A stretch of 64,000 nt of DNA, taken from NCBI GenBank assembly GCA_038757945.1, contig JBCDGJ010000002.1, positions 24,186 to 88,185 of the forward strand. Reading direction: 5' to 3'. The stretch's first letter is position 1; each line of letters opens with the position of its first letter. This document shows positions 7,558 through 46,550 of this stretch, piece by piece. The DNA is from Pseudomonadota bacterium (GTDB lineage: Bacteria; Pseudomonadota; Gammaproteobacteria; Pseudomonadales; Azotimanducaceae). Both the position numbers and the translations under genes were made by a program. The notes beneath the pieces were generated by a model. It worked only from the letters and a program-made list of their open reading frames with translations. It was not told the origin of the DNA and did no database searches.

Positions 7558-8415
7558 ATGGATCACTGGCCCTGGAGTGGTGTCCTCGAACGATATCGTG
7601 CCACTATCGACGGCGGCAACGGCACGGGACGTCCCCGGCCAGCGAAGCTAAAGCTGAGTTCGATCCGCAGAGCGCAACACAACGAGGCCAGCGTGCTCAA
7701 CCCTGTTCTGAACCGACAGCCGAACCGGCCCCGCAGCATCACCCGCAGCAGGGATGCGCTGCCTGCGAGCCGCCAGCCCGCATCCCGGAATAGATTCCGA
7801 GCGGCACGGCCACAACTGCTGCTCGTCGGCGCTCTGCTCGCCGGCTGCGTCAGCGACCGAAAACTCGAAACCGTTCTTGCGGACGCACGCTACACAGAAG
7901 CCGCCCTGCAGTACGAGCTGGATCGCGACAGTACCCGTATCGGCTTCAGCGTTGGCGACACCAGTGGCCGGTTTCGCGTCGTCGACGCGCGGCTCAGCTT
8001 TACGGAGCCGGAGCTCAGCGCGGCCGTGCTGGAAGTCACCATTGCGACCGCGAGCCTGGACCTCTTCAACCCGTTGCTCGAGCAGATGCTGCGCGGAGCC
8101 GACTGGTTCGACACCACTGCGCACCCGAGCGCGCGCTTTCAGTCCGAGTCCGTCGGCACCGCAGGCGAACAGTCGCTTGCCGTCACAGGCACGCTGACGA
8201 TCAAGAACATCACACAGCCGCTCGAGATCAGCGTCGAGTTTCCCGAGCTGCCGGCGTTGCCCGATCTCACCCTGCCGCCGGAGCGGATCCGGTTCGTGGC
8301 CAGCGGCGAGTTTCTTCGCTCGACTTTCGGCATGGACGACCTGCAGAGCTTCGCGCCCGATGAGGTGCAGCTGGAAATCGACGGTACGCTGCAGCGCGTG
8401 CTGCCTCAGCGCTGA
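7558..8415 (+). CDS. YceI-like domain lipoprotein (true start probably about 7780-7800, non-ATG)
   Basis: YceI-like core: YELDRDSTRIGFSV...RFRVVDARLSFTE...SLDLFNPLLEQMLRGADWFDTTAHPSARFQSESV...TGTLTIKNITQPLEISVEF. It is preceded by a lipoprotein-type signal (RNRFRAARPQLLLVGALLAGC-VSD). The first ~75 codons of the track ORF overlap the TauD gene's 5' region and are probably not translated. Confidence 0.6.
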   Translation: MDHWPWSGVLERYRATIDGGNGTGRPRPAKLKLSSIRRAQHNEASVLNPVLNRQPNRPRSITRSRDALPASRQPASRNRFRAARPQLLLVGALLAGCVSDRKLETVLADARYTEAALQYELDRDSTRIGFSVGDTSGRFRVVDARLSFTEPELSAAVLEVTIATASLDLFNPLLEQMLRGADWFDTTAHPSARFQSESVGTAGEQSLAVTGTLTIKNITQPLEISVEFPELPALPDLTLPPERIRFVASGEFLRSTFGMDDLQSFAPDEVQLEIDGTLQRVLPQR

Positions 8416-8476
8416 GGAACGGCACAGCCCTGCCCTGCACCGCCCAAAACCAACACCAGCGGAACACAGATCGCCC

Positions 8477-8980
8477 GTGAATCTCGATGACCATCGGCCA
8501 ACCGTCGAACAGCTCGCCGAGCTGCTGCTCGGTCGCAAGCAGACGCTGGTTACCGCGGAATCCTGCACCGGGGGCCTGCTCGCCGGTGTTCTGACCGACC
8601 TGGCCGGCAGCTCCAGCTGGTTCTATGGCGGCTTCGTAACCTACACGCTGGAGGCCAAACGTCGATGCCTCGGGGTCGAAGCGCAGACGTTGGATCGCTG
8701 GGGTGCCGTCAGCGAACCCACCGCACAGGCAATGGCCGCAGGCGCGCTCGCACATTCAAGCGCAGACCTCAGCGTCTCGGTCACCGGCGTCGCCGGTCCT
8801 GGCGGCGGAGAGCCGTTGCTGCCGGTCGGTACGGTGTGGTTCGGCTGGGCGGAGCGGGGCCGCACTCTCATCCACACCGCTGAGCACCAGTTCGAGGGCG
8901 ACCGGGCAAGCGTCAGGGATCAGGCCGTGGACCGTGCGCTGCAAGGTCTGCTTCGGCTGCTGGAAACGCCCGTTTCCTGA
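8477..8980 (+). CDS. pncC: CinA C-terminal domain protein / NMN amidohydrolase
   Basis: LVTAESCTGGLLAGVLTDLAGSS...GGFVTY...GAVSEPTAQAMAAGAL...SVTGVAGPGGG...GTVWFG is the CinA-C/PncC signature. The start is set at the in-frame GTG (VNLDDHRPTVEQLAELL). The upstream 39 codons of track ORF 8360..8980 overlap the YceI-like gene's end. Confidence 0.8.
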   Translation: MNLDDHRPTVEQLAELLLGRKQTLVTAESCTGGLLAGVLTDLAGSSSWFYGGFVTYTLEAKRRCLGVEAQTLDRWGAVSEPTAQAMAAGALAHSSADLSVSVTGVAGPGGGEPLLPVGTVWFGWAERGRTLIHTAEHQFEGDRASVRDQAVDRALQGLLRLLETPVS

Positions 8981-9007
8981 CCGGCGCCGCTCCGGCTCAC
9001 TGGAGCA

Positions 9008-9808
9008 TTGAACCCTTCTCCGGCCGGGTGCCACTCAATGGCAATACTCGACCTGGAGAACGAGATGCGGTTTCAGGCAACGACCATGGCACTGGTCCTC
9101 ACGATTTGCGCACCTTTAGCGCTTGCACAGCCGAACGACATCCTGTCGAGCAGCGGCTACGGCCCTTGGCTGAAGCTCGGCCAGCAACAGGCTGACACGA
9201 GGAGCGCAGCAGCTCAGCAAATCGGTGTCACGCAGCCCGTCCTTGACGGCACACCAAACGTCGTCACCGCCGGAGGGTCTGCGGATCAGACGGTCGCACA
9301 AAAAGCGCCAGGGCAGCAGGCAGGACAGCGTCCTACCTATACCCGAGGCACTACCGTTGGGGCAAACGTGCGCAGCGTGCAGCCAAAGTGCGGGGCTGGC
9401 TTGTCGATTCCGTTCCCGGACGTGTGCAAAACACCGAGCCCCGGCGGCCCGATACCCATTCCCTACCCGAACACCGCCTCGGCCAACGACACCGACGGTG
9501 CCAGCAACGTCGCGCGCAACAGGAAAGCAGGTCTACCGGCCATTGGTACGGGCGAACACCGCATCACACACGGCGATGAGGCGGCTGCGCAAGGTGACGG
9601 GGTCAGGAGCACGGCCAAGCAAGGTAAAACCGAGTTCGTCCAGTACAGCATGGATGTGAAGTTCGAGGGCAGGAACGCGGCCCGCGGCCTTGATCGCCTG
9701 TTGCCCAACGATCGCAACACACCACCGTTCCCGGTCCGGCAGGCACCGATCATCCGAGTACCCACGAACGACGCTCCCTGTCCGCTCTGCGGCGAGGATC
9801 GCAACTGA
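9008..9808 (+). CDS. Secreted DUF4150 (PAAR-like / Tox-PAAR-like) domain protein. The real start is probably the Met at about 9065 (MRFQATTMALV...).
   Basis: The C-terminal 150 aa, IPFPDVCKTPSPGGPIPIPYPNTASANDTD...GDEAAAQGDGVRSTAKQGKTEFVQYSMDVKFEGRNAARGLDRLLPNDRNTP, fit the DUF4150 pattern PD-C-TP...PIPYPN...GDEAG..GGV.S..KG...F..YS.DVKFEG.N..R..D....N..NT. An N-terminal Sec-type signal peptide (MRFQATTMALVLTICAPLALA/QP) and a low-complexity linker precede it. The protein ends in a PCPLCGE motif. Confidence 0.6.
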   Translation: MNPSPAGCHSMAILDLENEMRFQATTMALVLTICAPLALAQPNDILSSSGYGPWLKLGQQQADTRSAAAQQIGVTQPVLDGTPNVVTAGGSADQTVAQKAPGQQAGQRPTYTRGTTVGANVRSVQPKCGAGLSIPFPDVCKTPSPGGPIPIPYPNTASANDTDGASNVARNRKAGLPAIGTGEHRITHGDEAAAQGDGVRSTAKQGKTEFVQYSMDVKFEGRNAARGLDRLLPNDRNTPPFPVRQAPIIRVPTNDAPCPLCGEDRN

Positions 9809-9921
9809 AACCCGGTTGCCCGCGACAGCGGGCAGCACCCCGGCAGTCCGTGTTTGAACCTGATCGGGCCGGACCGCCACCCATCTGTACCACCACCCGA
9901 ACCAGAACCCAGGAGAGCATC

Positions 9922-10443
9922 ATGAAGACCATCCCCACCCTGAGCGCCTTGCTGCTGGTGATCGCCGCAGGCACCGCAAGCAGTGATCCGAGCACCAATC
10001 CGTACCACGACTGGCAGTCGATCTTCGATCCGGTCATCACGCAGCCGGTAGAGCCCGTCGAGGGTGAGCCCGAGATCATCGAAGAGCCTGCCGACAGCAG
10101 CGCGCCGATCGTCAAGGACGAACCGCGCCGCCGCAACCACCTGTATCCGGATCGCGGCCGTTGCGCCTACTCGTCGGAGTGCGGGCCCGACCTGCTGCCG
10201 ATCAAGCTCCCGAAACCCGGTCTGGAAGGCGACTACGGCGACAAGCCCAAGGAGGCGTACCTGCCGTCACCGTACCCGACGCTATTTGAAGACCAGCTCG
10301 ACGAGCGTGGCGACCTGGAGTACCGGATCGGTCTCGGCGACCGTCGTGCCAGCAGCGGAGAGCAGACCTTCAAGCGACTCGGTGCTCGCTGGAAGTCCCG
10401 CATCCCGCACCTGCGCTACAACGATGAGGACGAGAGCCGCTAG
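9922..10443 (+). CDS. Hypothetical secreted acidic protein
   Basis: The start is set at MKTIPTLSALLLVIAAGTASS (signal peptide) with an AGGAGA Shine-Dalgarno just upstream. Mature protein of about 150 aa is Asp/Glu/Pro-rich and carries a Cys pair (RCAYSSECGPD). No family recognised. It lies immediately downstream of the DUF4150 gene on the same strand. Confidence 0.5.
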   Translation: MKTIPTLSALLLVIAAGTASSDPSTNPYHDWQSIFDPVITQPVEPVEGEPEIIEEPADSSAPIVKDEPRRRNHLYPDRGRCAYSSECGPDLLPIKLPKPGLEGDYGDKPKEAYLPSPYPTLFEDQLDERGDLEYRIGLGDRRASSGEQTFKRLGARWKSRIPHLRYNDEDESR

Positions 10444-10509
10444 CAGGTCGACCACAGTACAGCCGGAAGCGCCCTGCAAACACGTCTGCAGGGCGCTCCC
10501 GCAGCTGCA

Positions 10510-11013
10510 CTAGGTGTCGCTTTCGACCTGAGCTTCGACGCCGATGCTGGCCAGCACCAGACGATCAAGGTTCAGCAGGATCACCAGCTTGTCGTTGATC
10601 TTCGCCAACCCCTGGATCAGCGTGGCATCGATCTCACCAGAGATGTTCGAGCTCTGCTGAATCTGCTCATCGGTCAGGTGGTATACCTCGGATACGCTGT
10701 CGACAACCAGCCCGACCACCTTTGCGCCAGCATCTGACTGAGCATTGACGATCACAACCGTGGTCGTTCCGCAGATTTCCTGCGCCGGCAGAGCGAACCG
10801 ACGGCGCAGATCGATGACGGGAATGATGGCACCACGCAGGTTGATGACCCCAAGCAGGTAGTCCGGCGCCTTCGGCAGCGGGGTCACCGGGCCCCAGCTC
10901 TTAATCTCCTGCACGCTGAGAATGTCGATCGCGTACTCTTCCTCGCCCAGCTCAAAGGTCAGATACTGGTTCTGATACTGAAGGTCGGTCTCGCTGATCT
11001 CTGCTGCGTCCAT
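10510..11013 (-). CDS. cheW: Chemotaxis coupling protein CheW
   Basis: QYLTFELGEEEYAIDILSVQEIK...VTPLPKAPDYLLGVINLRGAIIPVIDLR is the CheW-domain signature. The start is moved to the Met at MDAAEISETD. Confidence 0.85.
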   Translation of the reverse strand: MDAAEISETDLQYQNQYLTFELGEEEYAIDILSVQEIKSWGPVTPLPKAPDYLLGVINLRGAIIPVIDLRRRFALPAQEICGTTTVVIVNAQSDAGAKVVGLVVDSVSEVYHLTDEQIQQSSNISGEIDATLIQGLAKINDKLVILLNLDRLVLASIGVEAQVESDT

Positions 11014-11474
11014 TCCATTTCCCTGCACTGCGTTACCCTTCACCACCGCAGCGCCAGAGGCACTACAACGGTCAACCATCGGTCAGAGCTCCTTCACGAA
11101 CGAAAGCAACCTCTGACACCGATAACAAGAATAGACCGCGCAACGACAGATTGTGCTGGATCTCCCGCCGATTGCCGATTCTGTGCCCTGAGACACGTTC
11201 CCGTTCCGGACTACTTTGCCGCGCAGCTATCCGCCGTCACAGCAGCTAAACCCGGCTGTCCGTCCTAACCGGCGTGCATGTGCAATCGCCAGAATTCTGA
11301 CCGTTAACAGACCGGCTGACGTCACCAGAACGACGACGAGTGCGCTCTGTCTCGGATTCGGATGTTGGCCAGCAACGAGGAGAGATGCGTCTAGACTGAG
11401 GTAACACCCATCCGCTAAAGCGGCCGGTGGCGGCCGTTCAGGCATTCAGCAGAATCTGGAGAGAGTAGCTTCAT

Positions 11475-14075
11475 ATGGCACAGGGATCGCGCGCAAAAAG
11501 TTCTACGACGGGTAAAGCGCCAGCAAAACGACAGACGACAAAGCGGTCTACCGCCGGCAAAACGAAGCAGGAAAGTCCGATTCTCGAGCAGGCCATCACT
11601 GCAGTCGTCAGCATCGACGAAAACAACCTGGTGACCTTCTACAACAAATCCGCTGAGCTGCTCTGGGGCTACTCGGCAGAGGAAGTCATCGGCCGCAACG
11701 TGGCCATGCTGGTACCACCGGAGATGCAGAGCCAGCACGACAGCATGGTTGATGCCAACCGCACCACGGGTATCGACAAAATTGTGGGCACCAGCCGGGA
11801 AGTGCCCGTGCACCGCAAGGATGGCAGCCTCCGCTATGGCCGGTTGTCCCTCTCCAAAGTGCCGGTCGGCAAGAAAATCACCTACACAGCCTTCGTCGAG
11901 GACGTAACCGACCAGGTCCAGCAGCGCGAAGAGCTGCAGCAGATTTTTGCGCAGGCGGTTGACGCGGTCGTCAGCATCGACGAACAGAACATCGTGACCC
12001 GCTTCAACCCGGCGGCAGAGCGCCTCTGGGGCTACGACGCTGACGAGGTGCTGGGCAAAAACGTTTCCATGCTCGTGCCGCCAGAAATGCAGAGCCGGCA
12101 CGACGGCTTCGTCAACGCCAATCGCACCACTGGCGTCGACAAGATCGTCGGCACCAGCCGTGAGGTCCAGTTTCCCCGCAAAGACGGAACTCAGGTCTGG
12201 GGCAAACTCTCCCTGTCGCGAGTCAAGGTTGGGGATAGCATCACCTATACCGCCTTCGTTCAGGATGTCACCGCGGAGGTGGAACGACGCGAGGAGATCA
12301 AGGTCCTGTCGCTGGTTGCCAACGAAACCAGCAACTCGGTGGTCATCACGGACCCCCTCGGGCGCATCGAGTACGTCAACCCTGGCTTCTACAACATGAC
12401 CGGCTACACGCTGGACGACGTCGTCGGCAAGAAGCCCGGCGACGTGCTGCAGGGACCGTTGACGGATCAGGATACGGTGACCCGGATTCGTCATGCCCTG
12501 GAATCCCGCAAGCCGTTCTATGAAGAGATCCTTAATTATCGTCGCGACGGCAGCTCCTACTGGATCTCGCTGGCGGTCAACCCCGTGTGCAACGAGCAGG
12601 GGGAGATCTACAAGTTCGTCTCCGTGCAGGCGCTGATCGACGAGACCAAGCGCCAGCAGCTCGAGTATACGAACAAGATCAACGCGATCAGCCGGTCCCA
12701 GGCGGTGATCGAGTTTACGCCGGAAGGCAAGATCCTCGGCTGCAACGATAACTTCGAACGAGCCTCGGGCTTCAGTTCCGAAGAACTCATCGGCAAGCAC
12801 CACCGGATGCTGGTGGCCGCCGAGGAACAGGCGACCCCTGAATACCAGTCGCTCTGGAACCGCCTGGCTGCCGGCGAACCGTACGTCGCCAAGATCAAAC
12901 GGATGACCAAGAGCGGCGACCCCATGTATCTGCAGGCCTCGTACAATCCGATTCAGGACGCCGAGGGAAAAGTGTACATGGTGGTCAAGTACGCCTCTGA
13001 CGTCACCGAGCTGGAGCGTGAAGCGCTGATGGTTGCCGATGTGCTCTCGGAGTCGCGACAGGTCATGGAGGCCGTCGCCGAAGGCGATCTGACACAGACC
13101 GTGAACGGCCACTTCGAGGGCGACTGCGCTGTGCTGCAGAACGCCATCAACTCGAGCGTCGGCAAGCTGCGCGCAACGCTGGAGCAGATTGTCGAGTCGA
13201 GCCGCAACATGGGGCTGAGCGCGCAGACCGTCAGCCAGGGCAACCTGTCGCTGAGCCAGCGCACCGAGAACCAGGCGGCCACGCTGGAAGAAACGGCTGC
13301 CAGCATGGAGGAAATGACGAGCACCATCCGCTCCAACGCCGAAAACCTGAGAGAGGCGGATTCTCTCGCGGAAGTGGCGCGGGAAAAGGCCGACACGGGC
13401 GGCTCAGTGGTTGCTCAGGCCGTGCACGCCATGGATGAGATCAATGATGCCTCGAAGAAGATTGCCGACATCATCGGCGTCATCGACGAGATCGCGTTCC
13501 AAACCAACCTGCTGGCACTCAACGCCGCCGTCGAGGCCGCTCGCGCTGGTGAGCAGGGACGTGGATTTGCCGTGGTTGCTACGGAGGTCAGGAACCTGGC
13601 TCAGCGCAGTGCGGGTGCTGCCAAGGAAATCAAAGAGCTGATCAAGGACAGCGTCACCAAGGTCGATGAAGGCTCCCTTCTGGTGAACCGATCGGGCGAA
13701 ACGCTCACCGAAATCGTCGCCTCCGTGCAGCGCGTCAACGAGATCATCGGGCGTATCTCCGTCGCCAGCCAGGAACAGGCCGAAGGGGTCGACCAGGTCA
13801 ACCAGGCTGTTTCGAACATGGATCAGATGACGCAGAAGAACGCGGCGCTGGCCGAGGAAGCCACGTCAGCAAGTATGAACATGTCATCGGAATCGGAGTC
13901 TCTGAACCACCTGATTGGCGTATTTCAGCTTGGCCAGGAGCTCGAGCCGCAGCCGAGCCCTGCGGAGTTTCGAGCTCAGCCGACACCGCAGCCCGCAGCA
14001 ACCCAGGCCGCACCGGTCCAACGCCCCGTACCGGGCGCAGGGGGAGCCGCGGCTGAAGAGTGGGAAGAGTTCTGA
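11475..14075 (+). CDS. Soluble methyl-accepting chemotaxis protein with four to five tandem PAS domains, a HAMP-like linker and an MA signalling domain. It ends in the pentapeptide EWEEF.
   Basis: 866 aa. Repeated PAS blocks (...VVSIDE.N.V..FN.AAE.LWGY...[34 protein letters not shown]...). The signalling-domain consensus is [37 protein letters not shown]. No transmembrane segment is evident. The C-terminus is ...[18 protein letters not shown] Shine-Dalgarno lies 8 nt upstream of the ATG. Confidence 0.9.
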
Positions 14076-14215
14076 TCCGGTAGAGGACCGAAAGCAGGCG
14101 ATCTCCCTGCCTTGCCATCGCAAAGCAGGGCTAACGCCGTAACGCGCCAGGAAATCACCTGCGACCGTCGAAGGGAGCAACCACCCCAAGCGCCTGCCGG
14201 CGCGGCGGAGCGCTC

Positions 14216-15343
14216 TCAGCCGGCGGCCTGCACCGACGGCGCCACAGCCTCCTCGAACAGTCGCTGCAGCGTAGGACCAATCTGATCCAGCGGCAATTCG
14301 GCAACCGCGCCGCCGAGTTTCACGGCGCTGCCGGGCATTCCCCAGACTGCGCTGCTGTTGCGATCCTGCACCAGCGTCAGCGCGCCGGCATCCCGCAGTG
14401 CCTTCATGCCAACGGCGCCGTCCTCTCCCATACCCGTCAGCAGGACGCCGACCGTTGCGGGCGCACACTGCGCAGCCGCACTGCCGAACAGCACATCAGC
14501 AGACGGCCGGTGCCCGGAGACAGGCAGTGCTTCCGTGACGACGGATATCAGCCGGCCATCGCGACAGCGGACTTCCAGGTGCTGATCACCGGGCGCCACG
14601 TACGCGTGTCCACCCTGGAGCGGCGCCAGGTGGCCTGCAATTTCCACTTCAAAGCGGCTGATGCTGTTGAGCCGGCCCGCGAAAGGTGCCATGAACTTTT
14701 CCGGCATGTGCTGAACGAGCGCAACGGCAACCTCAGGGTGGTAGAAGTTTTCGAGCACCGTGCGCAGTGCTTCCGTGCCTCCGGTCGAAGCGCCTACGGC
14801 AAGCAGCCAGCGGGCGGAGCCCTTTGCCAGCGCCCGACGCCGGAGCGGTCGGCTCCAGTTGGCGGCCAGGTCGGCTGCTGTTTCGGAGCGAGGTAGGGTT
14901 GGCGGCGCGGTCTCGGCAGGCGTGCGTGTGATCGCCAACCGACTGCCTGCCGCGCCGCGAATCCGCTCGATCAACGCCCTGCCGTAACGGGCACGTTCCT
15001 CGGCGCTCTCTGGCGTTCGCTTCTCCAGAAAATCAACGGCTCCAAGCGCCAGCGCATCCAGCGACACCTCAGCACCCTGCTCTGTCAGAGACGACAGCAT
15101 GACGACCGGCATCGGCCGCAGGCGCATGAGGTTGCTGAGAAACGTGATGCCATCCATCTTCGGCATTTCCACATCCAGGGTGAGTACATCCGGCTGCAGG
15201 GTCTTGATCATTGATCGGGCTTCGTAGGGGTCCAGCGCCTGGCCGACGACCTCGATACCCCGATCCGCTGCCAGCAGCTGGCGCAGAAACGCACCGATCG
15301 CTCTGGAGTCGTCGACGATCAGTACACGAATAGGATCTGACAT
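14216..15343 (-). CDS. cheB: Protein-glutamate methylesterase/deamidase CheB (receiver plus methylesterase)
   Basis: MSDPIRVLIVDDSRAIGAFLRQLL...QPDVLTLDVEMPKMDGITFL is the receiver domain. The C-terminal methylesterase domain is also present. 375 aa. Confidence 0.9.
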   Translation of the reverse strand: MSDPIRVLIVDDSRAIGAFLRQLLAADRGIEVVGQALDPYEARSMIKTLQPDVLTLDVEMPKMDGITFLSNLMRLRPMPVVMLSSLTEQGAEVSLDALALGAVDFLEKRTPESAEERARYGRALIERIRGAAGSRLAITRTPAETAPPTLPRSETAADLAANWSRPLRRRALAKGSARWLLAVGASTGGTEALRTVLENFYHPEVAVALVQHMPEKFMAPFAGRLNSISRFEVEIAGHLAPLQGGHAYVAPGDQHLEVRCRDGRLISVVTEALPVSGHRPSADVLFGSAAAQCAPATVGVLLTGMGEDGAVGMKALRDAGALTLVQDRNSSAVWGMPGSAVKLGGAVAELPLDQIGPTLQRLFEEAVAPSVQAAG

Positions 15344-15367
15344 AGGGGAAGCCTCCGGAATTGCAGC

Positions 15368-16000
15368 CTAAAAGAGCTCGAGCTCGCCCGCAGGCGGCGG
15401 ACGCTTGCTCTCTGCCATGAGCTCCTTCTCTTTGACGGCGACGTAGTTGACATAGGAGTCACGCAGACGGCGCATGCGTGCGCGGCCGGAGCGTGGCTCG
15501 AAGAGAATCTTACGGGCATAGTCCGCGCCCAGATCGCGTGACAGCACGTTGAGTCCTTCCGCGAGCACGTACTGCTCAACGAAGGAGATGTTGGTCTCGC
15601 CAACGTCGGTCGCGATGTCCAGCACCCGGGCGCCGCCGAACAGCTTCACCTCGAGACGGGACTTCAAACCACCGTTCTTGATGACCGTGTTGATCAGCGC
15701 TTCCATGGCAAAGTTCCCAAACCGGTTCATGGCCGAAGAACCCTCGCCCCAGCTGTCCGCCCGGGCTTCATTGCCAACCGGGAGCATGAAATGGTTCAGC
15801 CCCCCAATACCGGCAACGGGATCGCGCACACAGGCGGCAATGCAGGAGCCCAGCACCGTCGCGATCGACTCGTCCTGGTTGCTGACATAGAACTGACCCG
15901 GCAGCACCTTGGCGATGGATCTGCCGCTGCTTCGATCGAAGAAGGTGTGTGCGTTCCCTTCCTGAACGACCCTGCCAGATTGGGCACCGATACTGGTCAT
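15368..16000 (-). CDS. cheD: Chemoreceptor glutamine deamidase CheD
   Basis: TVLGSCIAACVRDPVAGIGGLNHFMLP is the CheD signature. 210 aa. Confidence 0.85.
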   Translation of the reverse strand: MTSIGAQSGRVVQEGNAHTFFDRSSGRSIAKVLPGQFYVSNQDESIATVLGSCIAACVRDPVAGIGGLNHFMLPVGNEARADSWGEGSSAMNRFGNFAMEALINTVIKNGGLKSRLEVKLFGGARVLDIATDVGETNISFVEQYVLAEGLNVLSRDLGADYARKILFEPRSGRARMRRLRDSYVNYVAVKEKELMAESKRPPPAGELELF

Positions 16001-16845
16001 AGACGCCGATAAACCGTGTTCGAGATACGTTCATAGAGGTCATCGAGCCCTCGGATCGATTCCGAATGGCCGAGAAACAGCAACCCACCGCTCAGCTGAT
16101 GCCGGGAAAACTGCCTGATGACGCGCACCTGATCGTCACGGGTGAAATAGATCAGAACGTTGCGACAGAAGATGACGTCAACCGGGTTCTGCAACGGCCA
16201 GCTACCAAACAGGTTCAGCTGCCTGATGATCAGCCCCTCTCGCAGCGGTGCCTTGGCAACGAGCTGACCGTCACGCTGATCGAACCAGAGTTTTCGACGC
16301 TCGTCGGTCAAGCCGCGGATGGATGACATCCTGAACCGGCCAGCCCGGGTGCGGTTAATCATCTCCGTGTCCAGATCGGTGGCCAGCAGACGGTAGTCGG
16401 CTGCGCCTTTGAGCCGACACTCGTTCAAGGTCATCGCGATGGAATAGGGTTCCTCGCCGGACGAGCAGCCGGCGGACCAGAATCTCAACAGCGCTTTCGC
16501 CCCCGCTCGCTGCCGGAGCGCGGGCAGCGCTTCTGTCCGTAGGAACTCGAAGTGATGTTCTTCACGGAAAAAGTAAGTGAGGTTGGTCGTGACCGTGTTA
16601 ATGAACTCAGAGAGCTCCGGCGAGCCCGGCCGACGGATCTCCTGAATGTAGTCCGCAAAGGTCGACAGCCGAAGATCCCGCAGGCGGCGGGTAAACCGCG
16701 CGTAGAGCATGGTGCGCTTGCTGTCATCGAGATGAATGCCGGTCTGCTCGAGAGCCAGCTCGCGCAGCGCATTAAAGTCCCGGTCGCTGAGGTCATTCGG
16801 AATCGTAACCGGTGCCGCAGGAGGCCGTGTACGGAGCGGATCCAT
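15997..16845 (-). CDS. cheR: Chemotaxis protein methyltransferase CheR
   Basis: DFNALRELALEQTGIHLDDSKRTMLYARFTRRLR...TNLTYFFREEHHFEFL...RFWSAGCSSGEEPYSIAMTL is the CheR N-domain plus SAM-methyltransferase core. The start is moved to MDPLRTRPP, which removes overlap with the upstream STAS gene. The stop overlaps the cheD start by 4 nt. Confidence 0.85.
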   Translation of the reverse strand: MDPLRTRPPAAPVTIPNDLSDRDFNALRELALEQTGIHLDDSKRTMLYARFTRRLRDLRLSTFADYIQEIRRPGSPELSEFINTVTTNLTYFFREEHHFEFLRTEALPALRQRAGAKALLRFWSAGCSSGEEPYSIAMTLNECRLKGAADYRLLATDLDTEMINRTRAGRFRMSSIRGLTDERRKLWFDQRDGQLVAKAPLREGLIIRQLNLFGSWPLQNPVDVIFCRNVLIYFTRDDQVRVIRQFSRHQLSGGLLFLGHSESIRGLDDLYERISNTVYRRL

Positions 16846-16852
16846 GGATCGA

Positions 16853-17140
16853 CTAGCGCGGGGAAGCCATGGCCGCTTCAAGCAGCGAGCGGACCGACAG
16901 GTCGTCGAGCGCCTCAAGCACGGTGTCGGACAGCTCCGCAGTCAACACCCGTTGCGAGCCCTCGAGCCGGTGCAGGAACGCGATCAGCAGTTGAACGGCC
17001 GCGTAGTCCATGCTCGTGCAGTGGGAGCCGTCGAGGTGGAGAGCTTCGGTGCCTTCAAGAGCCTCCCCAAAAGCTCGAAAGACGGGCTCCGTTGCCTCGA
17101 GCTTAAAAGTCTCCGGGAGTGTGATCGTCGCGGTATTCAT
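16853..17140 (-). CDS. STAS-domain protein (anti-sigma-factor-antagonist-like) embedded in the che operon
   Basis: 95 aa with a STAS-like pattern (LHLDGSHCTSMDYAAVQLLIAFLHRLEG). It sits between cheA and cheR on the same strand. Confidence 0.65.
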   Translation of the reverse strand: MNTATITLPETFKLEATEPVFRAFGEALEGTEALHLDGSHCTSMDYAAVQLLIAFLHRLEGSQRVLTAELSDTVLEALDDLSVRSLLEAAMASPR

Positions 17141-17233
17141 TAATTGTTCTACCTGTCTCTGTCCAAGCCACGCCCGACACGTCGTCAGGGCTACCAGCCT
17201 GCGGCGCTCAAGGCGCTTGTCCCTGCACTTGCT

Positions 17234-19384
17234 TTACGCCGAGAGCGCAAGGTCCTTCGCGCTGAAAGGGTTGCTGCCCTGGGTGAACGCCGGTGGATCA
17301 AGAATGAGCGCAACGTTGCCGGTGCTCATGATCGTCGCGCCAGCAATACCGGGAACAGCCCGATAGTTCTCGTCCAGAGCCTTGATGACCGCTTGCTGCT
17401 GGCCCTCTACCTGATCGATGACCAGTCCGGCGAGCTGGCCATGGTTTTCTATAATGACGATGAGCTCGCCGCGGTGGTCCGCCGCAATGTCGAAGCGCGA
17501 GGCGAGGTCGATCAAGGGCAGGTACTGATCCCGAAACTCGAACACTTCGGTCCCGTTCGGCAATCGGGTGAGGTTGCAGTTTGTAATCTCAATGGTCTCA
17601 ATGATCGACAGCAGCGGAATGACAAAGGTGTGCTCACAGACCGTGACCAGCTGACCATGCAGGATTGCAAGCGTAAGCGGGAGCCGGATGATGACGTTGG
17701 TGCCGCTGCCCGGTTCCGACTCAAGGTCAACGTGCCCGCCAAGATCGAGAATGTTCTTTCGAACCACGTCCATGCCGACTCCACGGCCGGACACATCGGA
17801 CACTTCGCTGGCCGTGGAAAACCCCGGCGCAAAGATCAGACGATTGATCTGATCATCGGACAACTGCTCATCAGCGCCGACCACCCCACGCTCGATGGCT
17901 TTGCGCAGGACCACTTCGCGGTTGATGCCACGTCCGTCGTCTTTGATCTCAATGACGACCGAGCCGCTCTGATGGTAGGCGAGAAGCTTCAGTACGCCGG
18001 TCTCCGGTTTGCCTGCCGCAAGACGTTCCTCCGCCCCTTCGAGACCATGATCGAGGGAGTTGCGGACCAGATGAACCAGCGGATCCATGATCCGCTCCAG
18101 TACCGTCTTATCGATCTCCGTTTCACCCCCTTCGACGACCAGCTCAACGCGCTTGTCGAGCTTCCGCGACAGATCACGAACCAGCCTTGGCAGCCGGTTG
18201 AAGCCGCTGGACAGAGGCAGCATCCGGACCCGCATGACGGATTCCTGCAGCTCCCGGGTGTTGTGCTCGAGGTCAGCGAGACGATCCCGTAGCTGCTCGA
18301 TATCAAGGCTGTCTTCGCTGGCTCCGAGGCGGTTCAGCATCGATTGCGTAATGACCAGCTCCCCAACCAGATTGATGAGCTGATCGATCTTTTCGGTCGA
18401 AATGCGAACCGAGCTGGCATCGGAGCTGGCTGCTTTGTCGCGGCGCGAAGAACCCACCGCCTTGACCGTCCCGTCCTGTGTCGAGCCTGGGCCGGCAGCA
18501 GGTGCCGTTTCAGCAGCGGGCGCCGGCACAGGAGCAGGGGCTGGCGGAGGCTCCTGGGCGGACCCCTGTGGCTCCGCGTCTGGCACCGGCTGCGGTTCTT
18601 CTGCAGTCGCCGCAGCAGCTGCAGAGGGTTCGGTGCCCGGCTCGTCGAGGCCCGTAACGGTAACCTCGCAGTCGAACTCGACCCACTCGAAAATCTCCGT
18701 CACCGCAGACTCGGGACAGTCGCTGATCAGGCGGGCAGTCCAGCTCAGGTAGCAGGCCTTGGGGTCCATCGCATCCCAGCTGGACAACGAGTCCAGCTCC
18801 GGGGTCAGCTCCAGGGCGCCAAGCCGCTTGAGCTCGCGCAGCAGCAGCAGCGGGTCGTTGCCCCGACTCATCAGCTCCGGCTTCGGCACGAAGCGAATAT
18901 GCCAGCCGGACGCTGCAGCCGGCTCTGCTGCAGCTGCCTCTCCTGATGCAGCTGCAGGAGCTCCTGGTGTCGGATCAGCTGCTGCTGGGACAGAAGCTGC
19001 CGAGCCAGCGACCGCACTTTCGAGCCGTTCCTGCATGGGAACGCGCTCCTTATGATCCGCATCGCCGCGGCTCTCCATGAGCTCCCGGACAATATCGACG
19101 GATTCCAGCAGCAGCTCGAGATCCGCATCAAGGACCGGCCGCTTTTCGGACCGCATCTCGTCGAGCAGCGTTTCCATGTGATGCGTCAGTTCTGCCATCG
19201 CGGCGAAGCCGAAGGTGGCACCACCACCCTTAATGGAGTGAGCGGCGCGAAACACTTCGTTCAGAAGCTCGAGGTCGTTGTCACCACGACCAAGCTGCAG
19301 CAAACCCTGCTCGAGGATATCGACGTTCTCGCTGCACTCGTCGAGAAAGATGCTCTTCAGTTCGTCGAGTTCCTGATCATCCAT
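17234..19384 (-). CDS. cheA: Chemotaxis histidine kinase CheA
   Basis: HPt domain (FRAAHSIKGGGATFGF), a Pro/Ala-rich linker, a dimerisation domain, an HATPase_c domain (HLVRNSLDHGLE...IEIKDDGRGI) and a C-terminal CheW-like domain. 716 aa. Confidence 0.92.
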   Translation of the reverse strand: MDDQELDELKSIFLDECSENVDILEQGLLQLGRGDNDLELLNEVFRAAHSIKGGGATFGFAAMAELTHHMETLLDEMRSEKRPVLDADLELLLESVDIVRELMESRGDADHKERVPMQERLESAVAGSAASVPAAADPTPGAPAAASGEAAAAEPAAASGWHIRFVPKPELMSRGNDPLLLLRELKRLGALELTPELDSLSSWDAMDPKACYLSWTARLISDCPESAVTEIFEWVEFDCEVTVTGLDEPGTEPSAAAAATAEEPQPVPDAEPQGSAQEPPPAPAPVPAPAAETAPAAGPGSTQDGTVKAVGSSRRDKAASSDASSVRISTEKIDQLINLVGELVITQSMLNRLGASEDSLDIEQLRDRLADLEHNTRELQESVMRVRMLPLSSGFNRLPRLVRDLSRKLDKRVELVVEGGETEIDKTVLERIMDPLVHLVRNSLDHGLEGAEERLAAGKPETGVLKLLAYHQSGSVVIEIKDDGRGINREVVLRKAIERGVVGADEQLSDDQINRLIFAPGFSTASEVSDVSGRGVGMDVVRKNILDLGGHVDLESEPGSGTNVIIRLPLTLAILHGQLVTVCEHTFVIPLLSIIETIEITNCNLTRLPNGTEVFEFRDQYLPLIDLASRFDIAADHRGELIVIIENHGQLAGLVIDQVEGQQQAVIKALDENYRAVPGIAGATIMSTGNVALILDPPAFTQGSNPFSAKDLALSA

Positions 19385-19614
19385 CCGTTTTCAATCCCCG
19401 TTTGCGCCAGCCAATGGCCCCCATCTCGTGCCACCCGTGGACACGCAATGGATGCTCGGCTCATCTGGAAAGCATAGTTCGACAGCGGAGGTTTGCCCGG
19501 CCAACTGCGTGCTGGTGTGGCGCAGTACAACTTTCACTGCTACACCTAAGACAACCTGAAAATCTTCCATAGACGGCAAATGCATCACGCAACGGGTTCT
19601 GATGGCGGAAAACG

Positions 19615-20454
19615 GTGAGTGAAGTCTCACTGACAGAGGTAGTGGACTACGGCGCTGCGCATCTCAGCCTGCCGAAATCTGCGCTGAGCGTCTTTCAATT
19701 GGCGGTCAGCGAAGAGACCACCAACCAGCAGCTGGTCCGGGCAATCCAGGTTGATCCCGGGCTCGCAGCGCGCCTGCTGCAGAAGGTGAACACCCCGGCT
19801 TTCTCCCGCGGTGCCGAGGTCACCTCCCTCGAAGTCGCAGTCGCCCGTCTGGGCCGGGAGCAGCTGGCGCAGCTCGCTGCAGTGCTGGCGACTGCCGAAG
19901 AGGTGCATCGCCTTGACTGCGACCTGTACAAGTCGCAGAGCTACGCCAGACACAGCGTCAACGTCGGTTTGATTGCGGGCAAAATCGCAAATCGCTTCGA
20001 CCTGCAGGCCGAGAGCATCTTTGTTGCCGGGTTACTGCACGATCTCGGCAAACCCATCGAGTTCCACATGCTTGGCGACCAGATGATCGAGGTTCTCGAC
20101 CAATCGCTCTTCAGCGATGAGCTCGATCTGGCGCAGGCTGAGCAGGAGGTGCTCGGCTTCAACCACTCCGAAGTGGGTGCCGCTCTGGCACAACAGTGGA
20201 ACCTGCCAGGCATCATTATCGAGTGCATTCGTTATCACCATCGGCCCGAAGCTGCTGTAGAGCACCCGGAGGCCGTTGCAGCCGTGGCCCTTGCGAACGC
20301 AATTGAGCACATGGAGATGGAAGACGACTTCGAAGATCTGGAAGCATTCAGGGCTATGGCAGCTCGAACCGCCCACCTGCTGCCGGTCACGCTGGAAGAA
20401 GCGCTCGTCTGGCGTCTCGAAGCACTGGAGTCAGCACAGAAGCTGAACGGCTGA
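19615..20454 (+). CDS. HDOD domain protein
   Basis: LLHDLGKPIEF and HSEVGAALAQQWNLP are HDOD (HD-related output domain) motifs. 279 aa. Divergent from cheA. Confidence 0.8.
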   Translation: MSEVSLTEVVDYGAAHLSLPKSALSVFQLAVSEETTNQQLVRAIQVDPGLAARLLQKVNTPAFSRGAEVTSLEVAVARLGREQLAQLAAVLATAEEVHRLDCDLYKSQSYARHSVNVGLIAGKIANRFDLQAESIFVAGLLHDLGKPIEFHMLGDQMIEVLDQSLFSDELDLAQAEQEVLGFNHSEVGAALAQQWNLPGIIIECIRYHHRPEAAVEHPEAVAAVALANAIEHMEMEDDFEDLEAFRAMAARTAHLLPVTLEEALVWRLEALESAQKLNG

Positions 20455-20468
20455 CTGCTGGACCGAAC

Positions 20469-20541
20469 CGGTTGCGGTTGCGGTTGCGGTTGCGGTTGCG
20501 GTTGCGGTTGCGGTTGCGGTTGCGGTTGCGGTTGCGGTTGC
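20469..20541. repeat. Perfect hexanucleotide microsatellite, (GGTTGC) repeated about 12 times
   Basis: Seen directly: ggttgcggttgcggttgc... uninterrupted for about 73 nt. It lies between the convergent HDOD gene (stop 20454) and the CheX-like gene (stop 20593). Confidence 0.9.
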
Positions 20542-20592
20542 GAAATGGTGGTGGCGCCTCAGTGCAGACACCACTACTGAACGCGATGGCCG

Positions 20593-21045
20593 TCAGATGG
20601 CTTTAAACGAAAGCGCTCCGTCGCCGTAGCCACCAAGCTGTACGCTCAGCTCTACGGTGCGTGCATCCCCCAGCGCGTCAGCCCCGGCAAAGTCTGCAAA
20701 GGGAGAAACCCGGACGAGCTTCAAGTGCGGCGTACTGTCATCCATGAACACCGTCGAAAAGATGTTCATCACCTCATAGAGGTTGTCCTGCGCTATTGGC
20801 GTCAACTCACCGCTGGACAGCATTTCCTCGGCAGCCGCCGGAGGAATCATCGACAGCGCTGAACCAAGGCCAGCCGACGCGGCGAAGTCGCTGTAACAGA
20901 CGCTGACCAGTTCTCCTTCGTCATCCACAAATTCGCCGACGAAGGCATAACTGTCCGCGCCGCCGCTCTTCGCCTCGGCATCCGGGACAAACATCTGCAG
21001 TATGCCGGTGACGGCTTCTTCGGTCGGTACTTTGAATTTTGCCAT
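20593..21045 (-). CDS. Putative CheX/CheC-family chemotaxis phosphatase
   Basis: 150 aa, encoded immediately upstream of and co-directional with cheY. It contains an E-x2-N motif (EVMNI) followed by Pro residues, as in the CheC/CheX D/S-x3-E-x2-N-x22-P signature. The assignment is tentative. Confidence 0.45.
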   Translation of the reverse strand: MAKFKVPTEEAVTGILQMFVPDAEAKSGGADSYAFVGEFVDDEGELVSVCYSDFAASAGLGSALSMIPPAAAEEMLSSGELTPIAQDNLYEVMNIFSTVFMDDSTPHLKLVRVSPFADFAGADALGDARTVELSVQLGGYGDGALSFKAI

Positions 21046-21059
21046 CAGAATCTCCAGCG

Positions 21060-21422
21060 TCAGCCCAATACCGGCCGCAGGGCCTTTTCGAAGCTCTCGG
21101 CGGTAAACGGTTTGCTGATCAGAAACTGCGCTCCGCTCTCTCGTGCCAGGGCGCGCATCTCGGCAGTCGATTCGGTCGTCACGAACCCGAACTTCACAGC
21201 GTTCTTGTCCTCTCGCAGCTTCTTCAGCAGGTCGATGCCGTTCATGTTCGGCATGTTCCAGTCGCAGAGGATCAACTCCGGGTCAACTTCGTAAAACGCA
21301 TCCAGCGCTTTTGCGCCATCTTCCGCCTCGCTGATTTCGAGGCCACTAAAACCGGCCTGCTTCAGCGTACGCTTGACGATCTGACGCATGGCCGTGCTGT
21401 CATCGACGATCAGTACTTTCAT
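21060..21422 (-). CDS. cheY: Chemotaxis response regulator CheY
   Basis: MKVLIVDDSTAMRQIVKRTLKQAGF...LILCDWNMPNMNGIDLLKKLR...FVTTESTAEMRALARESGAQFLISKPF. Single receiver domain, 120 aa. Confidence 0.88.
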   Translation of the reverse strand: MKVLIVDDSTAMRQIVKRTLKQAGFSGLEISEAEDGAKALDAFYEVDPELILCDWNMPNMNGIDLLKKLREDKNAVKFGFVTTESTAEMRALARESGAQFLISKPFTAESFEKALRPVLG

Positions 21423-21684
21423 GACTTTCCAAGGTATGGACGTACTTGAAATATAGAAGGTGGATCCAGTTCTGCTGCAGCGCTGCCGAGAAAGTGTGTG
21501 CGATCCGTCACACCTACGAATGCAGCCGCACCCTGCGACCGCTCGAGCCCTGGCAACCCCGACGGGATCGCGCCGGCGCCGCCGCTGATGTGACGTAGAG
21601 CGCCTTCCTAGCTACGGTGCCAGGCACGGGTCACCAGTTCGGTCTAGTCTTTTCTGAGACGGAGACCCTGGGGACCAGTCCTAG

Positions 21685-22050
21685 ATGGCTAAAATTCTGG
21701 CAGTAGACGACTCACCGGCGATTCGCAAGATGGTCGCTTCGGTGCTGAAGAACGCCGGCCACAGCTTGACCAGCGCTGAGGACGGCATCGAAGCATCGCG
21801 GGTAGCGAACGAAGACAGCTTCGAGCTGATCATCACCGACGTTCACATGCCGAACATGAACGGCATCGAGCTGATCGAAACGCTGCGGCAGCGGCCGGGC
21901 TACCAACATACGCCGATGCTCGTGCTGACGACCGAGTCCAGCATGGAGATGAAGCAGAAGGGGCGGGCCGCGGGCGCAACCGGCTGGATCGTCAAGCCCT
22001 TCAACCCGGAATCCCTGATCGCCGCCGTGTCCAAGGTGCTCGGGCGCTAG
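21685..22050 (+). CDS. CheY-like single-domain response regulator (second copy)
   Basis: MAKILAVDDSPAIRKMVASVLKNAGH...LIITDVHMPNMNGIELIETLR...LVLTTESSMEMKQKGRAAGATGWIVKPF. 121 aa. Divergent from the other cheY. Confidence 0.85.
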   Translation: MAKILAVDDSPAIRKMVASVLKNAGHSLTSAEDGIEASRVANEDSFELIITDVHMPNMNGIELIETLRQRPGYQHTPMLVLTTESSMEMKQKGRAAGATGWIVKPFNPESLIAAVSKVLGR

Positions 22051-22544
22051 TGGCCCTGCACCCCGGGGATTCTGGCGAGCGAGCGACGCGCGCCGCGACC
22101 CCAATGGCTGACCCCGCCACGCAACCGGACGCGGCAGCCCTGGAGCTGTTGTTCCAGCTGCACGGTCGTCTGCTCGAAGCTGCCCGCGCCGAGCTGCTGG
22201 ATGCCGTTGGTCCGATCAGCGAGGTGCTTGGTCAGCTGCTCGAGCAACGCGAACAGCCCCTGCGGGCGGCGCTGGAACAGGCTGCCATCGACCTGCAGGC
22301 TGCGGACTCAGTCGCGCAGCGGCTGGCGCACCTTCAGTCAGCGATGGACCGCCTCGATCGGCTCGCGCGCGCTGACCAGCTGCACGCACCGTCGAAGGCT
22401 CGCGCGCAGCTGTTTGAGCAGCTATGGCGGAGCTTTACCATTGCCGACGAGCGGGCCACCTTCGCAGAAGTGCTGGCCCCCGGTGAAGAATCCAGCAGCA
22501 ACCTCCGCCCACCGGGCGGGCACGGTGATCTGGAGCTGTTCTAA
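22050..22544 (+). CDS. Hypothetical Ala/Leu/Gln/Arg-rich helical protein translationally coupled to the second cheY-like gene
   Basis: Its start overlaps the cheY-like stop. 164 aa of predicted alpha-helical, low-complexity sequence. No family recognised. Its existence as a gene is uncertain. Confidence 0.35.
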   Translation: MALHPGDSGERATRAATPMADPATQPDAAALELLFQLHGRLLEAARAELLDAVGPISEVLGQLLEQREQPLRAALEQAAIDLQAADSVAQRLAHLQSAMDRLDRLARADQLHAPSKARAQLFEQLWRSFTIADERATFAEVLAPGEESSSNLRPPGGHGDLELF

Positions 22545-24039: not shown

Positions 24040-24361
24040 GGCCCACTGGTCGTGCCGCGAGCACACGCTCCCGATCATCGAGCTCCACGCTGCCCAGCAG
24101 GCCCTTGTCCGCCAGCAGTGCCTCGAAGGCGGCCAGGAAGTGATCGAAGTAGGCATAGTCGTCCGTGCTGCCGGATCGATCCCAACGGTCGATCTGGGCA
24201 ATGAGATGAGCGCGGAACTCGTCCCAGCTGTAGGCGCCCGCCTCGGACAGTGCGCGGGCCATGCCGAACACCCGGCTCTGCCAGGGTGCTTCGAAGACCA
24301 CCTCGCCGTTGGCCATGGGCGGGGCCAGGGTGCCGCTGAGCCCCTCGTCGAAGCCGCTCAC
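24017..24361 (-). CDS. Nitrile hydratase accessory/activator protein (beta-subunit-homologous small protein)
   Basis: 114 aa. ...VFEAPWQSRVFGMARAL... resembles the NHase beta N-terminal region, as in the P14K/NhlE-type accessory proteins of cobalt NHases. Its ATG overlaps the alpha-subunit stop in an ATGA arrangement. Confidence 0.65.
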   Translation of the reverse strand: MSGFDEGLSGTLAPPMANGEVVFEAPWQSRVFGMARALSEAGAYSWDEFRAHLIAQIDRWDRSGSTDDYAYFDHFLAAFEALLADKGLLGSVELDDRERVLAARPVGHDHPHEH

Positions 24362-24933
24362 AACACGCTGACGCCGATCATCGCCTCACGGGTCACCCGC
24401 GCCGCAAGCTGTTCTGCGGACAGTCCACGGGTTGCCGCTGGCTGCTGCGGCAGGACCAGGTAACGGATCTCGGCACTGGAATCCCAGACCCGGACTTCAC
24501 GCTCGGCCGGCAGCTCGAGACCAAACTCCCGCAGCACGGCCCGCGGCTCGCGCACAACCCGGGACCGGTAGGCGGGATCCTTATACCAGCGCGGGGGCAA
24601 ACCCAGCATAGCCCAGGGATAACAGGAGCAGAGCGTACAGACGACCACGTTGTGCACAGCGTCGGTGTTCTCGACCACAACCAGCTTCTGCACCTCGCCG
24701 CCTTCAAACTCGAACTCCTCGATCGCTGCCGTAGCGTCGGCCAGCAACCGCACCTTGAAGTCAGGGTTGGTCCAGGCCCGGGCGACCACCCGCGCACCGT
24801 TCATGGGGCCGACCCGATCGTTGTAGCGAGCGATGGTCTCATCCACGTCCGCTTCCGTGAGCAGGCCCTGTTCGATCAGCAGCGCCTCCAGCGCCTCTGC
24901 CCGGATTGCCTGTTGCGATCGTGATTCACTCAT
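24358..24933 (-). CDS. nthA: Nitrile hydratase alpha subunit (cobalt type)
   Basis: Starts MSESRSQQAIRAEALEALLIEQG. It contains the metal-binding motif VVCTLCSCYPW. The Thr in C-T-L-C-S-C is characteristic of Co-type enzymes; Fe-type enzymes have CSLCSC. The start is set at the internal Met of track ORF 24358..25284, whose upstream part is an out-of-frame overlap with the beta gene. Confidence 0.9.
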   Translation of the reverse strand: MSESRSQQAIRAEALEALLIEQGLLTEADVDETIARYNDRVGPMNGARVVARAWTNPDFKVRLLADATAAIEEFEFEGGEVQKLVVVENTDAVHNVVVCTLCSCYPWAMLGLPPRWYKDPAYRSRVVREPRAVLREFGLELPAEREVRVWDSSAEIRYLVLPQQPAATRGLSAEQLAARVTREAMIGVSVL

Positions 24934-27673: not shown

Positions 27674-27706
27674 CGGTGCTAAAGGCGTTCAATGATGTCT
27701 GGTTCG

Positions 27707-27988: not shown

Positions 27989-28101
27989 AGTCGTAACCAA
28001 AAGTAACACTACCCAATTATGCGTTGCTGCCGCGGCACCCGCCAGCAGAGCCCAGCAGCGTACCGGCGGGCTGGCAGCACCGCGGGGTTCCTGGCTGCAG
28101 C

Positions 28102-34121: not shown

Positions 34122-34140
34122 GCACCGGCTGGAAATCGCC

Positions 34141-46545: not shown

Positions 46546-46550
46546 TTCAA

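Follow-up and report, generated by a model that had tools for sequence, protein, structure and literature searches.

We analysed a stretch of 64,000 nucleotides (hereafter, the window) from a metagenome-assembled genome (MAG) of a gammaproteobacterium (Pseudomonadota; Pseudomonadales; Azotimanducaceae; GenBank assembly GCA_038757945.1, contig JBCDGJ010000002.1, positions 24,186 to 88,185 of the forward strand). The gene of interest, located at 9065..9808 on the + strand (stop codon included), encodes a 247-residue protein in which a PAAR-like domain (Pfam PF13665, Tox-PAAR-like/DUF4150) lies behind a predicted Sec-type signal peptide and a low-complexity linker. It is followed on the same strand by a second gene, orf173 (9922..10443), whose 173-residue acidic product is also predicted to be exported. 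To our knowledge, the only understood role of cones of the PAAR and PAAR-like type is that of tips on contractile-injection spikes that are assembled in the cytoplasm.

A DUF4150 domain behind a predicted signal peptide

The open reading frame (ORF) that a preliminary description of this locus had reported at 9008..9808 (+) is present, and the proposed identity of its C-terminal part as DUF4150 was borne out by a hidden Markov model search with PF13665, in which it scored 85 bits (E=5e-24) where the cutoff is 31. This match comprises residues 114-220 (9404-9724) and positions 3-107 of the 108 in the model, that is, the whole model; an NCBIfam scan returned nothing further on this protein. Alignments and tblastn extended the homology to 9353..9805 (+), a region that corresponds to the whole of a 153-residue, stand-alone PAAR-like subfamily of type VI secretion systems (T6SS), with 54% identity over 153 columns in a single frame. 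The Arg97 codon (CGA, 9353-9355) occupies the position of the relatives' Met1; residue 2 of those proteins is the first to align, and the homology extends as far as their last residues. The domain thus starts at residue 97-98 of 247 rather than at the extreme N-terminus of the protein. When 1.84 billion cluster representatives were searched with HMMER (1677 hits), about 140 of the best 149 representatives other than the query had a match that began no farther in than residue 25 or so. Among 5.8 billion proteins the only full-length match was the protein itself; the other matches listed are confined to the C-terminal 55-62% of the query, at about 46-54% identity, and are stand-alone DUF4150 proteins, almost all of 142-157 residues, from Myxococcota, Planctomycetota and other groups.

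The best start codon is the ATG at 9065, which is preceded by a Shine-Dalgarno (SD) sequence, GGAGA, read at 9055..9059 (+) with a 5-nt spacer. The identical protein in the public databases (MEM1432533.1, P0001) is annotated from the ATG at 9038, which lacks an SD sequence and would give an acidic N-terminus that fails our signal-peptide rule. The remaining in-frame starts are TTG 9008, ATG 9086 and then only GTG 9368 and GTG 9377, both of which lie inside the conserved first strand of the domain (TVGAN in the query, TVGVN in the family). Because the Met1 position is occupied by CGA and there is no in-frame start between 9086 and 9368, translation must begin far upstream of the domain. It follows from this layout that there are only two ways to make the domain: as part of the long precursor, or in an N-terminally clipped form that starts at a GTG codon with no convincing SD sequence.

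Residues 1-21 of the precursor (9065..9127, +; MRFQATTMALVLTICAPLALA, followed by QP) are predicted to form a Sec/SPI signal peptide, with a positive n-region (MRFQATT), an uncharged hydrophobic core (MALVLTICAPL) and an A-x-A site (ALA before QP). The prediction was made with a rule set that requires a positive n-region, an uncharged h-region of 10-15 residues, an AxA-type cleavage site and no Pro at +1. This rule was passed by 25 of the 1774 start codons of the window that have at least 60 open codons after them (1.4%); the ORFs that begin at several of these match Pfam families of a kind usual in exported or membrane proteins. Over its best 12-residue hydrophobic stretch the N-terminus has a mean Kyte-Doolittle hydropathy of 2.46, and direct reading of this region revealed neither a lipobox nor a twin-arginine motif. 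The Q/A/G/T-rich, low-complexity linker that follows (9128..9352, +; about residues 22-96; 74 residues if taken as 23-96) has a grand average of hydropathy (GRAVY) of -0.62 and, in AlphaFold2 (AF2) models, a predicted local distance difference test score (pLDDT) below 50 over most of its length. The placement of the domain behind a signal peptide and a low-complexity linker, which the preliminary description had set against the usual N-terminal position, is therefore confirmed as far as prediction goes. No homolog of the N-terminal extension was found in the 5.8 billion proteins, the 1.84 billion cluster representatives or a metagenome DNA scan. The mature protein, consisting of linker and cone, would be basic, with an isoelectric point (pI) of about 9.

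Descent and uneven conservation of the domain

The C-terminal tail (9716..9805, +; NTPPFPVRQAPIIRVPTNDAPCPLCGEDRN) carries a CxxC motif, and in the 153-residue T6SS subfamily N218, T219, P220, P221, P223, Q226 and P228 are invariant and C239 and C242 are at least 90% conserved. All of the tail invariants, as well as the FPDVCKTPSPGGPIPIPYPN block, are intact in the query. The preliminary description was thus correct in reporting a two-Cys PCPLCGE motif here, but the motif is not peculiar to this protein, as the tail pattern NTPPxPxxQxPxI...CxxCGE is ancestral to the 153-residue subfamily and not new.

The AF2 model of the domain alone, based on a diverse alignment, reached a pLDDT of 78.9 and a predicted template modelling (TM) score of 0.70, with lower values in the diverged middle; a full-length run on a shallow alignment gave a pLDDT of 49. 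The top Foldseek matches in the PDB were PAAR proteins (4jiv_D, with probability 0.91 and a TM-score, TMt, of 0.56; 4ku0_D; 4jiw_D; 6p1z_D), all of them at E>=0.1 and not significant. A profile of the family (A2) matched PDB chain 8qjc_A, the PAAR-like N-terminus of a T6SS Rhs protein, with E=2e-15.

The copy in the window is a long branch: members of the family show about 77% identity among themselves, whereas the query reaches only about 50% with them. This divergence is not spread evenly over the domain. The query keeps the family residue in 56 of 76 near-invariant columns (74%) and in 23 of 75 variable columns (31%; Fisher p=1.3e-7), and change beyond that of typical family members was seen in 26% of the near-invariant columns as compared with 54% of the variable ones. 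The uneven divergence therefore favours continued, though altered, constraint. We considered whether the diverged middle part might conceal a frameshift and ruled this out, because the tblastn match is one continuous frame; nor do the alignments contain a stop codon. The preliminary description had named a pseudogene fused by frameshift to a signal sequence as a possible refutation, and no such frameshift was seen.

GRAVY of the domain is -0.60, as compared with -0.19 +/- 0.10 in the T6SS relatives, and of the 15 substitutions in columns where the family conserves a hydrophobic residue, 11 introduce a polar one. The conserved Cys of the DGNPVCVKDSNF segment ('NPVC'), present in at least 90% of the family, is absent from the query, which reads AGLPA-IGTGEH, and it is also lost in every other signal-peptide-bearing member of the family (see below). 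The G+C content at third codon positions (GC3) of the gene is 0.71, at the low end of the range for window genes. As this value is within the range of the host, the gene is not a very recent arrival.

Genomic context of the gene and of its relatives

The preliminary description had found no T6SS or Rhs context, and this held throughout the window: the about 58 main ORFs scanned gave no match to a family of VgrG, Hcp, Tss, ClpV, DUF2169 or Rhs, nor to any toxin family, and tblastn of the window with the T6SS module proteins of two relatives (loci L002, Hyalangium rubrum, and L003, Pirellulaceae) gave no match. The genes upstream encode an acyl-CoA dehydrogenase, TauD, YceI and PncC, and those downstream encode CheW, an Aer2-like PAS chemoreceptor, CheB, CheD, CheR and CheA. 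An 866-residue ORF at 11475..14075, suspected of being ClpV, proved to be the Aer2-like, PAS-containing chemoreceptor. When species-representative genomes were scanned with PncC, the best relatives were 57-58% identical, and none had a PAAR-like gene or cheW beside pncC. A search for repeats and mobile-element scars around 8000-11600 returned short chance repeats only.

In the two relatives (L002 3174-13739 and L003 7339-13686), the 153-residue protein is encoded in a T6SS cargo module with the order VgrG (one or two copies), DUF2169, DUF6484, PAAR-like protein, unannotated protein, AHH nuclease or unknown protein, Imm11 and Imm49. The unannotated protein directly after the PAAR-like gene is 349-382 residues long and matches no Pfam family; it may be a cargo or adaptor that is served by the conserved CxxC tail.

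A second set of signal-peptide-bearing DUF4150 proteins

A larger start offset was seen in 9 of the best 149 other representatives, and most of these are mis-called starts or frame errors. The extensions of P0163, P0164, P0186 and P0251 look like such errors and not like signal peptides, and those of P0220 (double CxxC) and P0134 (non-hydrophobic) are not signal peptides either. Both of the latter are unusual: P0220 carries a 55-residue, zinc-ribbon-like extension with its double CxxC on DUF4150, and P0134 has a 60-residue polar extension and, as in the query, no Met at the canonical domain start. Three of the nine, P0133 (MSTARMRLLIAVLCLACSAPAWA, predicted cleavage before T), P0264 and P0132, have convincing predicted signal peptides, and a follow-up search added P0272, P0273 and the N-terminally truncated P0271. 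Identity to P0133 across this clade, the members of which come from metagenomes, is 44-56%, and its signal peptides are recognisably similar. The query and the clade are less alike than either is to the 153-residue family; we, therefore, think that the signal peptide was most likely gained twice, independently, as judged from these alignments.

The surroundings of these genes are mostly not those of a T6SS. P0273 (L040) is an example of the clade outside a T6SS context: its neighbours encode a TetR regulator, a 115-residue exported protein, an alpha/beta-hydrolase, DsbH, Lgt and ThyA, and the 10 kb to each side contain no T6SS gene. P0133 adjoins a histidine-kinase fragment, and P0132 adjoins a CARDB protein. 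When the literature was searched for PAAR/DUF4150 proteins that bear a signal peptide or are independent of T6SS, all that came up were papers on conventional T6SS, so that the preliminary description of the architecture as undescribed stands in the sense that no paper describing it was found; it does not stand in the sense of uniqueness in the databases, given that P0133, P0264, P0272 and P0273 also bear signal peptides.

The downstream gene orf173

The gene orf173 (9922..10443, +), with an SD sequence AGGAGA at 9911-9916 and a 5-nt spacer, encodes a Pro/Asp/Glu-rich orphan protein. Its N-terminus passes the signal-peptide rule and its predicted mature form has a pI of 4.8, so the earlier account of a second, acidic gene product with a signal peptide of its own is supported. 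Its GC3 of 0.80 is typical of the window. The sole match of orf173 among the 5.8 billion proteins was itself (MEM1432534.1, locus tag AAGG11_00590), and the metagenome DNA scan contained no homolog. Because orf173 has no homolog at all, and the N-terminal extension of the PAAR-like protein none either in the protein and metagenome scans, their adjacency cannot be conserved, and the notion of a conserved pair is unsupported.

Residues 117-151 of orf173 (10270..10374, +; YPTLFEDQLDERGDLEYRIGLGDRRASS...) contain a weak motif similar to the peptidoglycan-binding domain of Pal and OmpA. The NCBIfam model TIGR02802 (Pal_lipo) matched with E=6.4e-5 and 23 bits, the cutoff being 125, and 10 of 11 PDB sequence matches were Pal/OmpA-like proteins aligned to the same stretch, with weak E values of 0.04 to 1.4; no Pfam family matched at E<=1. 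The alignment places LDERGDLEYRIGLGDRRA of orf173 against ADERGTPEYNISLGERRA of Pal. The core ..DERG..EY.I.LG.RRA.. appears to be common to both, including an Asp and an Arg, as does the exported location predicted for orf173, whereas about 35-45 of the roughly 105 domain residues align and orf173 has no lipobox. The Asp and Arg positions are presumably those reported for OmpA-like domains to contact the diaminopimelate of peptidoglycan. Compared with E. coli Pal, orf173 is Pro-rich in the region where helix 1 would be expected and appears to end before the last conserved strand. We take the similarity as a lead rather than as demonstrable membership of the family. An immunity-like or chaperone-like role, as had been suggested for this protein, gains nothing from the Pfam and NCBIfam scans, in which no immunity or chaperone family matched and the weak Pal/OmpA-like motif was all that appeared. 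A resemblance to the neighbours of P0273 was also looked for, and none was seen. Nothing links orf173 to the PAAR-like protein beyond adjacency, the predicted export signals that they have in common and their opposite charge; a partnership is therefore speculative.

Other features of the window

A 9-bp GC-rich hairpin lies just 3' of the stop codon of the PAAR-like gene (9815..9836, +; RNA fold of 9803-9925, z=-2.05), and a strong hairpin (10464..10501; inverted repeat I2, RNA fold z=-4.0) is situated between the convergent orf173 and cheW; neither has a U-tract. Promoter and terminator consensus scans of this high-GC DNA gave no match.

Farther downstream, 10510-22544 holds a complete chemotaxis cluster, with CheW, the 866-residue Aer2-like receptor with several PAS domains, CheB, CheD, CheR and CheA, together with an HDOD protein and a pair of single-domain response regulators. 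At 24358-29247, a 308-residue protein with a nitrile-hydratase-alpha domain only in its C-terminal 180 residues is encoded close to genes for a PhyH dioxygenase and a radical SAM enzyme and to small ORFs that are unannotated. A beta subunit was not seen in the scanned ORFs, and the group may be a cluster for peptide modification or for an unusual hydratase. The segment 30283-32891 encodes an inactive transglutaminase fused to seven transmembrane helices (PF14400 and PF14402), followed by a sugar-transfer-associated ATP-grasp enzyme (PF14397); the families of both are named but poorly understood. At 33303-36168, a gene for a CbbQ/NorQ-type AAA ATPase is followed by a 700-residue ORF that matches no Pfam family at E<=1e-5. 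Finally, 44437-47038 contains three tRNA genes (44437-44510, 46471-46542 and 46966-47038), few high-GC3 ORFs and a lower G+C content, and is a possible integration hotspot.

Discussion

The explanation that we favour, and to which we would give about an even chance, is that 9065..9808 is an intact gene for a PAAR-like cone that derives from a T6SS spike tip and has been re-routed to the cell envelope, where it would no longer be part of a T6SS. The ancestor would have been a member of the 153-residue stand-alone spike-tip subfamily, encoded in a VgrG-DUF2169-DUF6484-PAAR-toxin-immunity module and captured by a gammaproteobacterial lineage. There the gene would have lost its own start codon, and reading from the upstream ATG would add the signal peptide and the disordered 74-residue linker. 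The precursor would be exported by Sec and cleaved after the ALA at position 21, so that linker and cone would reside in the periplasm or beyond and would no longer cap a cytoplasmic VgrG spike. The mature protein would probably serve as a small binding module, or as one stabilised by metal or disulfide, and it might act together with the acidic, exported orf173 protein with its Pal-like motif. DUF4150-type PAARs are reported to depend on a cognate VgrG and on a chaperone of the DUF2169 (TvpA/Tap2) type, by which their hydrophobic surfaces are shielded (PMC13373197), and the hydrophilic shift of the query fits the loss of such surfaces. It is because these hydrophobic, partner-facing features have been shed that we think of an envelope protein, which would probably not bind VgrG, rather than of a T6SS part.

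Several observations weigh against this explanation. Of the near-invariant columns, 26% (20/76) have changed, some of them radically (DSNF to TGEH, H to P), and the AF2 confidence over the radically changed stretch is only 56-68. The protein is a singleton, no ortholog with the extension having been found in the searches. The signal-peptide call comes from a rule set, and the T6SS survey covers the 64-kb window only. GC3 of the linker drops to 0.5-0.63. In the second clade, an 84-residue gene fragment upstream of P0264 (L043 3-257) weakly resembles the C-terminus of VgrG (Pfam DUF2345, E=1.2e-3; blastp, E=0.015) and has a beta-helix-like repeat (..IILKGGKSITLRSGNHYLTIGPDGIKASTGIVNP) at its end, so that T6SS linkage may be compatible with a hydrophobic N-terminus. 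Since the query is a singleton, the weight of the case falls mostly on the second, independent clade.

One alternative, which we consider unlikely on balance but serious, is that the gene is a decaying relic. In this scenario a T6SS PAAR-like gene was acquired horizontally and then lost its start and its partners; the frame that is open to a signal-like ATG would be incidental, or the 5' end would have been captured from an older exported gene, and the product, if made, would be functionless. Such a history would account for the singleton locus with its orphan neighbour and no T6SS genes among the nearby ORFs of the window, for the low identity to a family that is itself cohesive, and for the altered near-invariant columns and the lost Cys. 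The low-complexity linker, with its atypical codon-position GC, and orf173, which looks like a truncated, degenerate OmpA-like domain, also agree with it. However, decay does not readily explain why 247 codons have remained open without a frameshift, why change is concentrated in the columns that are variable in the family, or why the invariants of the C-terminal tail and the FPDVCKTPSPGGPIPIPYPN block are intact. An SD sequence with a canonical signal peptide would arise by chance at roughly 1% of start codons. Furthermore, the same loss of Cys and the same hydrophilic shift are found in an independent clade in which the signal peptide is conserved.

Alternatively, the protein might still be the tip of a T6SS spike, mounted on a VgrG encoded elsewhere in the genome, either as a cytoplasmic product of about 145 residues made from GTG 9368 or 9377, or with its N-terminal helix acting as a prePAAR-like membrane-insertion segment. 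It is common for PAAR genes to lie as orphans at a distance from T6SS clusters, as is discussed in PMC7376260; the T6SS survey took in 64 kb of the genome, and P0264 of the second clade is preceded by the fragment with weak VgrG-like signals. We nevertheless think that this is improbable. The linkage to VgrG and DUF2169 that is reported (PMC13373197) and seen in the relatives was not found in the window. A start at either GTG would delete the conserved first strand and lacks a convincing SD sequence. Inspection of the translated N-terminus by eye revealed no prePAAR motif (AARxxDxxxH), and the scanned ORFs include no DUF1795/Eag or toxin family. In addition, the hydrophobic surfaces are now largely polar. 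An assembly or annotation artefact, in which a chimeric join or a sequencing error fused an unrelated 5' end to a PAAR-like gene, would suit a metagenome-assembled source and a unique architecture but is very improbable, given that the same sequence occurs in the 88-kb NCBI MAG contig and in an independently built Logan contig of SRR22824304 (possibly from the same reads), that CGA would need three substitutions to become ATG with no start codon at any nearby position, and that composition is continuous across the junction.

If the re-routing of a spike-tip cone to the envelope is what happened here, a wider proposal can be considered, which we put forward tentatively and regard as rather unlikely in its full extent: Sec-exported DUF4150 proteins would form an unrecognised, T6SS-independent class of envelope or extracellular proteins. 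The class would have two or more origins in one spike-tip subfamily, with this MAG representing one and the clade of P0133, P0264, P0272 and P0273 another, and both times the hydrophobic surface that faces the chaperone and VgrG would have been lost along with one conserved Cys. Outside the cytoplasm, such proteins could, for example, cap a trimeric beta-helical structure or bind to one, or they could be periplasmic decoys or sensors for incoming spikes; in this genome the PAAR-like protein might work with a peptidoglycan-associated acidic partner. If this is true, the PAAR fold has been put to a further use in the envelope, and one should be cautious in taking every DUF4150 match as a T6SS marker or an effector anchor in surveys. 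The P0133-type clade offers a small, testable set of proteins on which the notion of exported PAAR-like proteins can be examined.

Comparison with known PAAR-like proteins

The DUF4150-type PAARs and effectors that have been described, namely Serratia Paar1, Agrobacterium Tde2 and Pseudomonas Tse7 (PMC13373197, PMC7376260) and the Rhs protein of 8qjc, belong to the same Pfam family as the protein studied here, for which the same cone fold is tentatively predicted. In these cytoplasmic proteins the domain stands at the extreme N-terminus; they require a DUF2169/Tvp chaperone and a cognate VgrG and often have toxin domains. None of this would apply to the query.

The closest known proteins are the 153-residue DUF4150 relatives, such as those of Hyalangium rubrum (P0087), a Pirellulaceae bacterium (P0009) and Myxococcus xanthus (P0308), the whole body of which aligns with the query at 47-54% identity. 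The FPDVCKTPSPGGPIPIPYPN block is identical, and the GDEA, FxxxSxDVKFEG and NTPPFP motifs and the CxxCGE tail are held in common. Unlike these relatives, the query has no Met at the domain start and a 96-residue extension, made up of the predicted signal peptide and the linker, ahead of it; it has lost the 'NPVC' Cys and has a new Cys at residue 110, and it is much more hydrophilic and more basic. Its locus is also without the VgrG, DUF2169, DUF6484, toxin and immunity neighbours of the relatives.

The query also resembles the set of P0133, P0264, P0272, P0273, P0271 and P0132, which is of the same broad subfamily. There too, a predicted Sec-type signal peptide precedes DUF4150, the 'NPVC' Cys is missing, the mature form is both basic and hydrophilic, and the contexts are mostly non-T6SS, with genes for exported proteins as neighbours. 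The two differ in that the signal peptide of the P0133-type proteins abuts the domain without a linker and that these proteins carry a C-terminal extension of 60-80 residues (..VTEVSYIDASG..GEYCAVCMA.G.VTAIHRL and a basic tail). Identity between the set and the query is 32-36% over the full-length alignment (A4) and 41-43% over the matched stretches.

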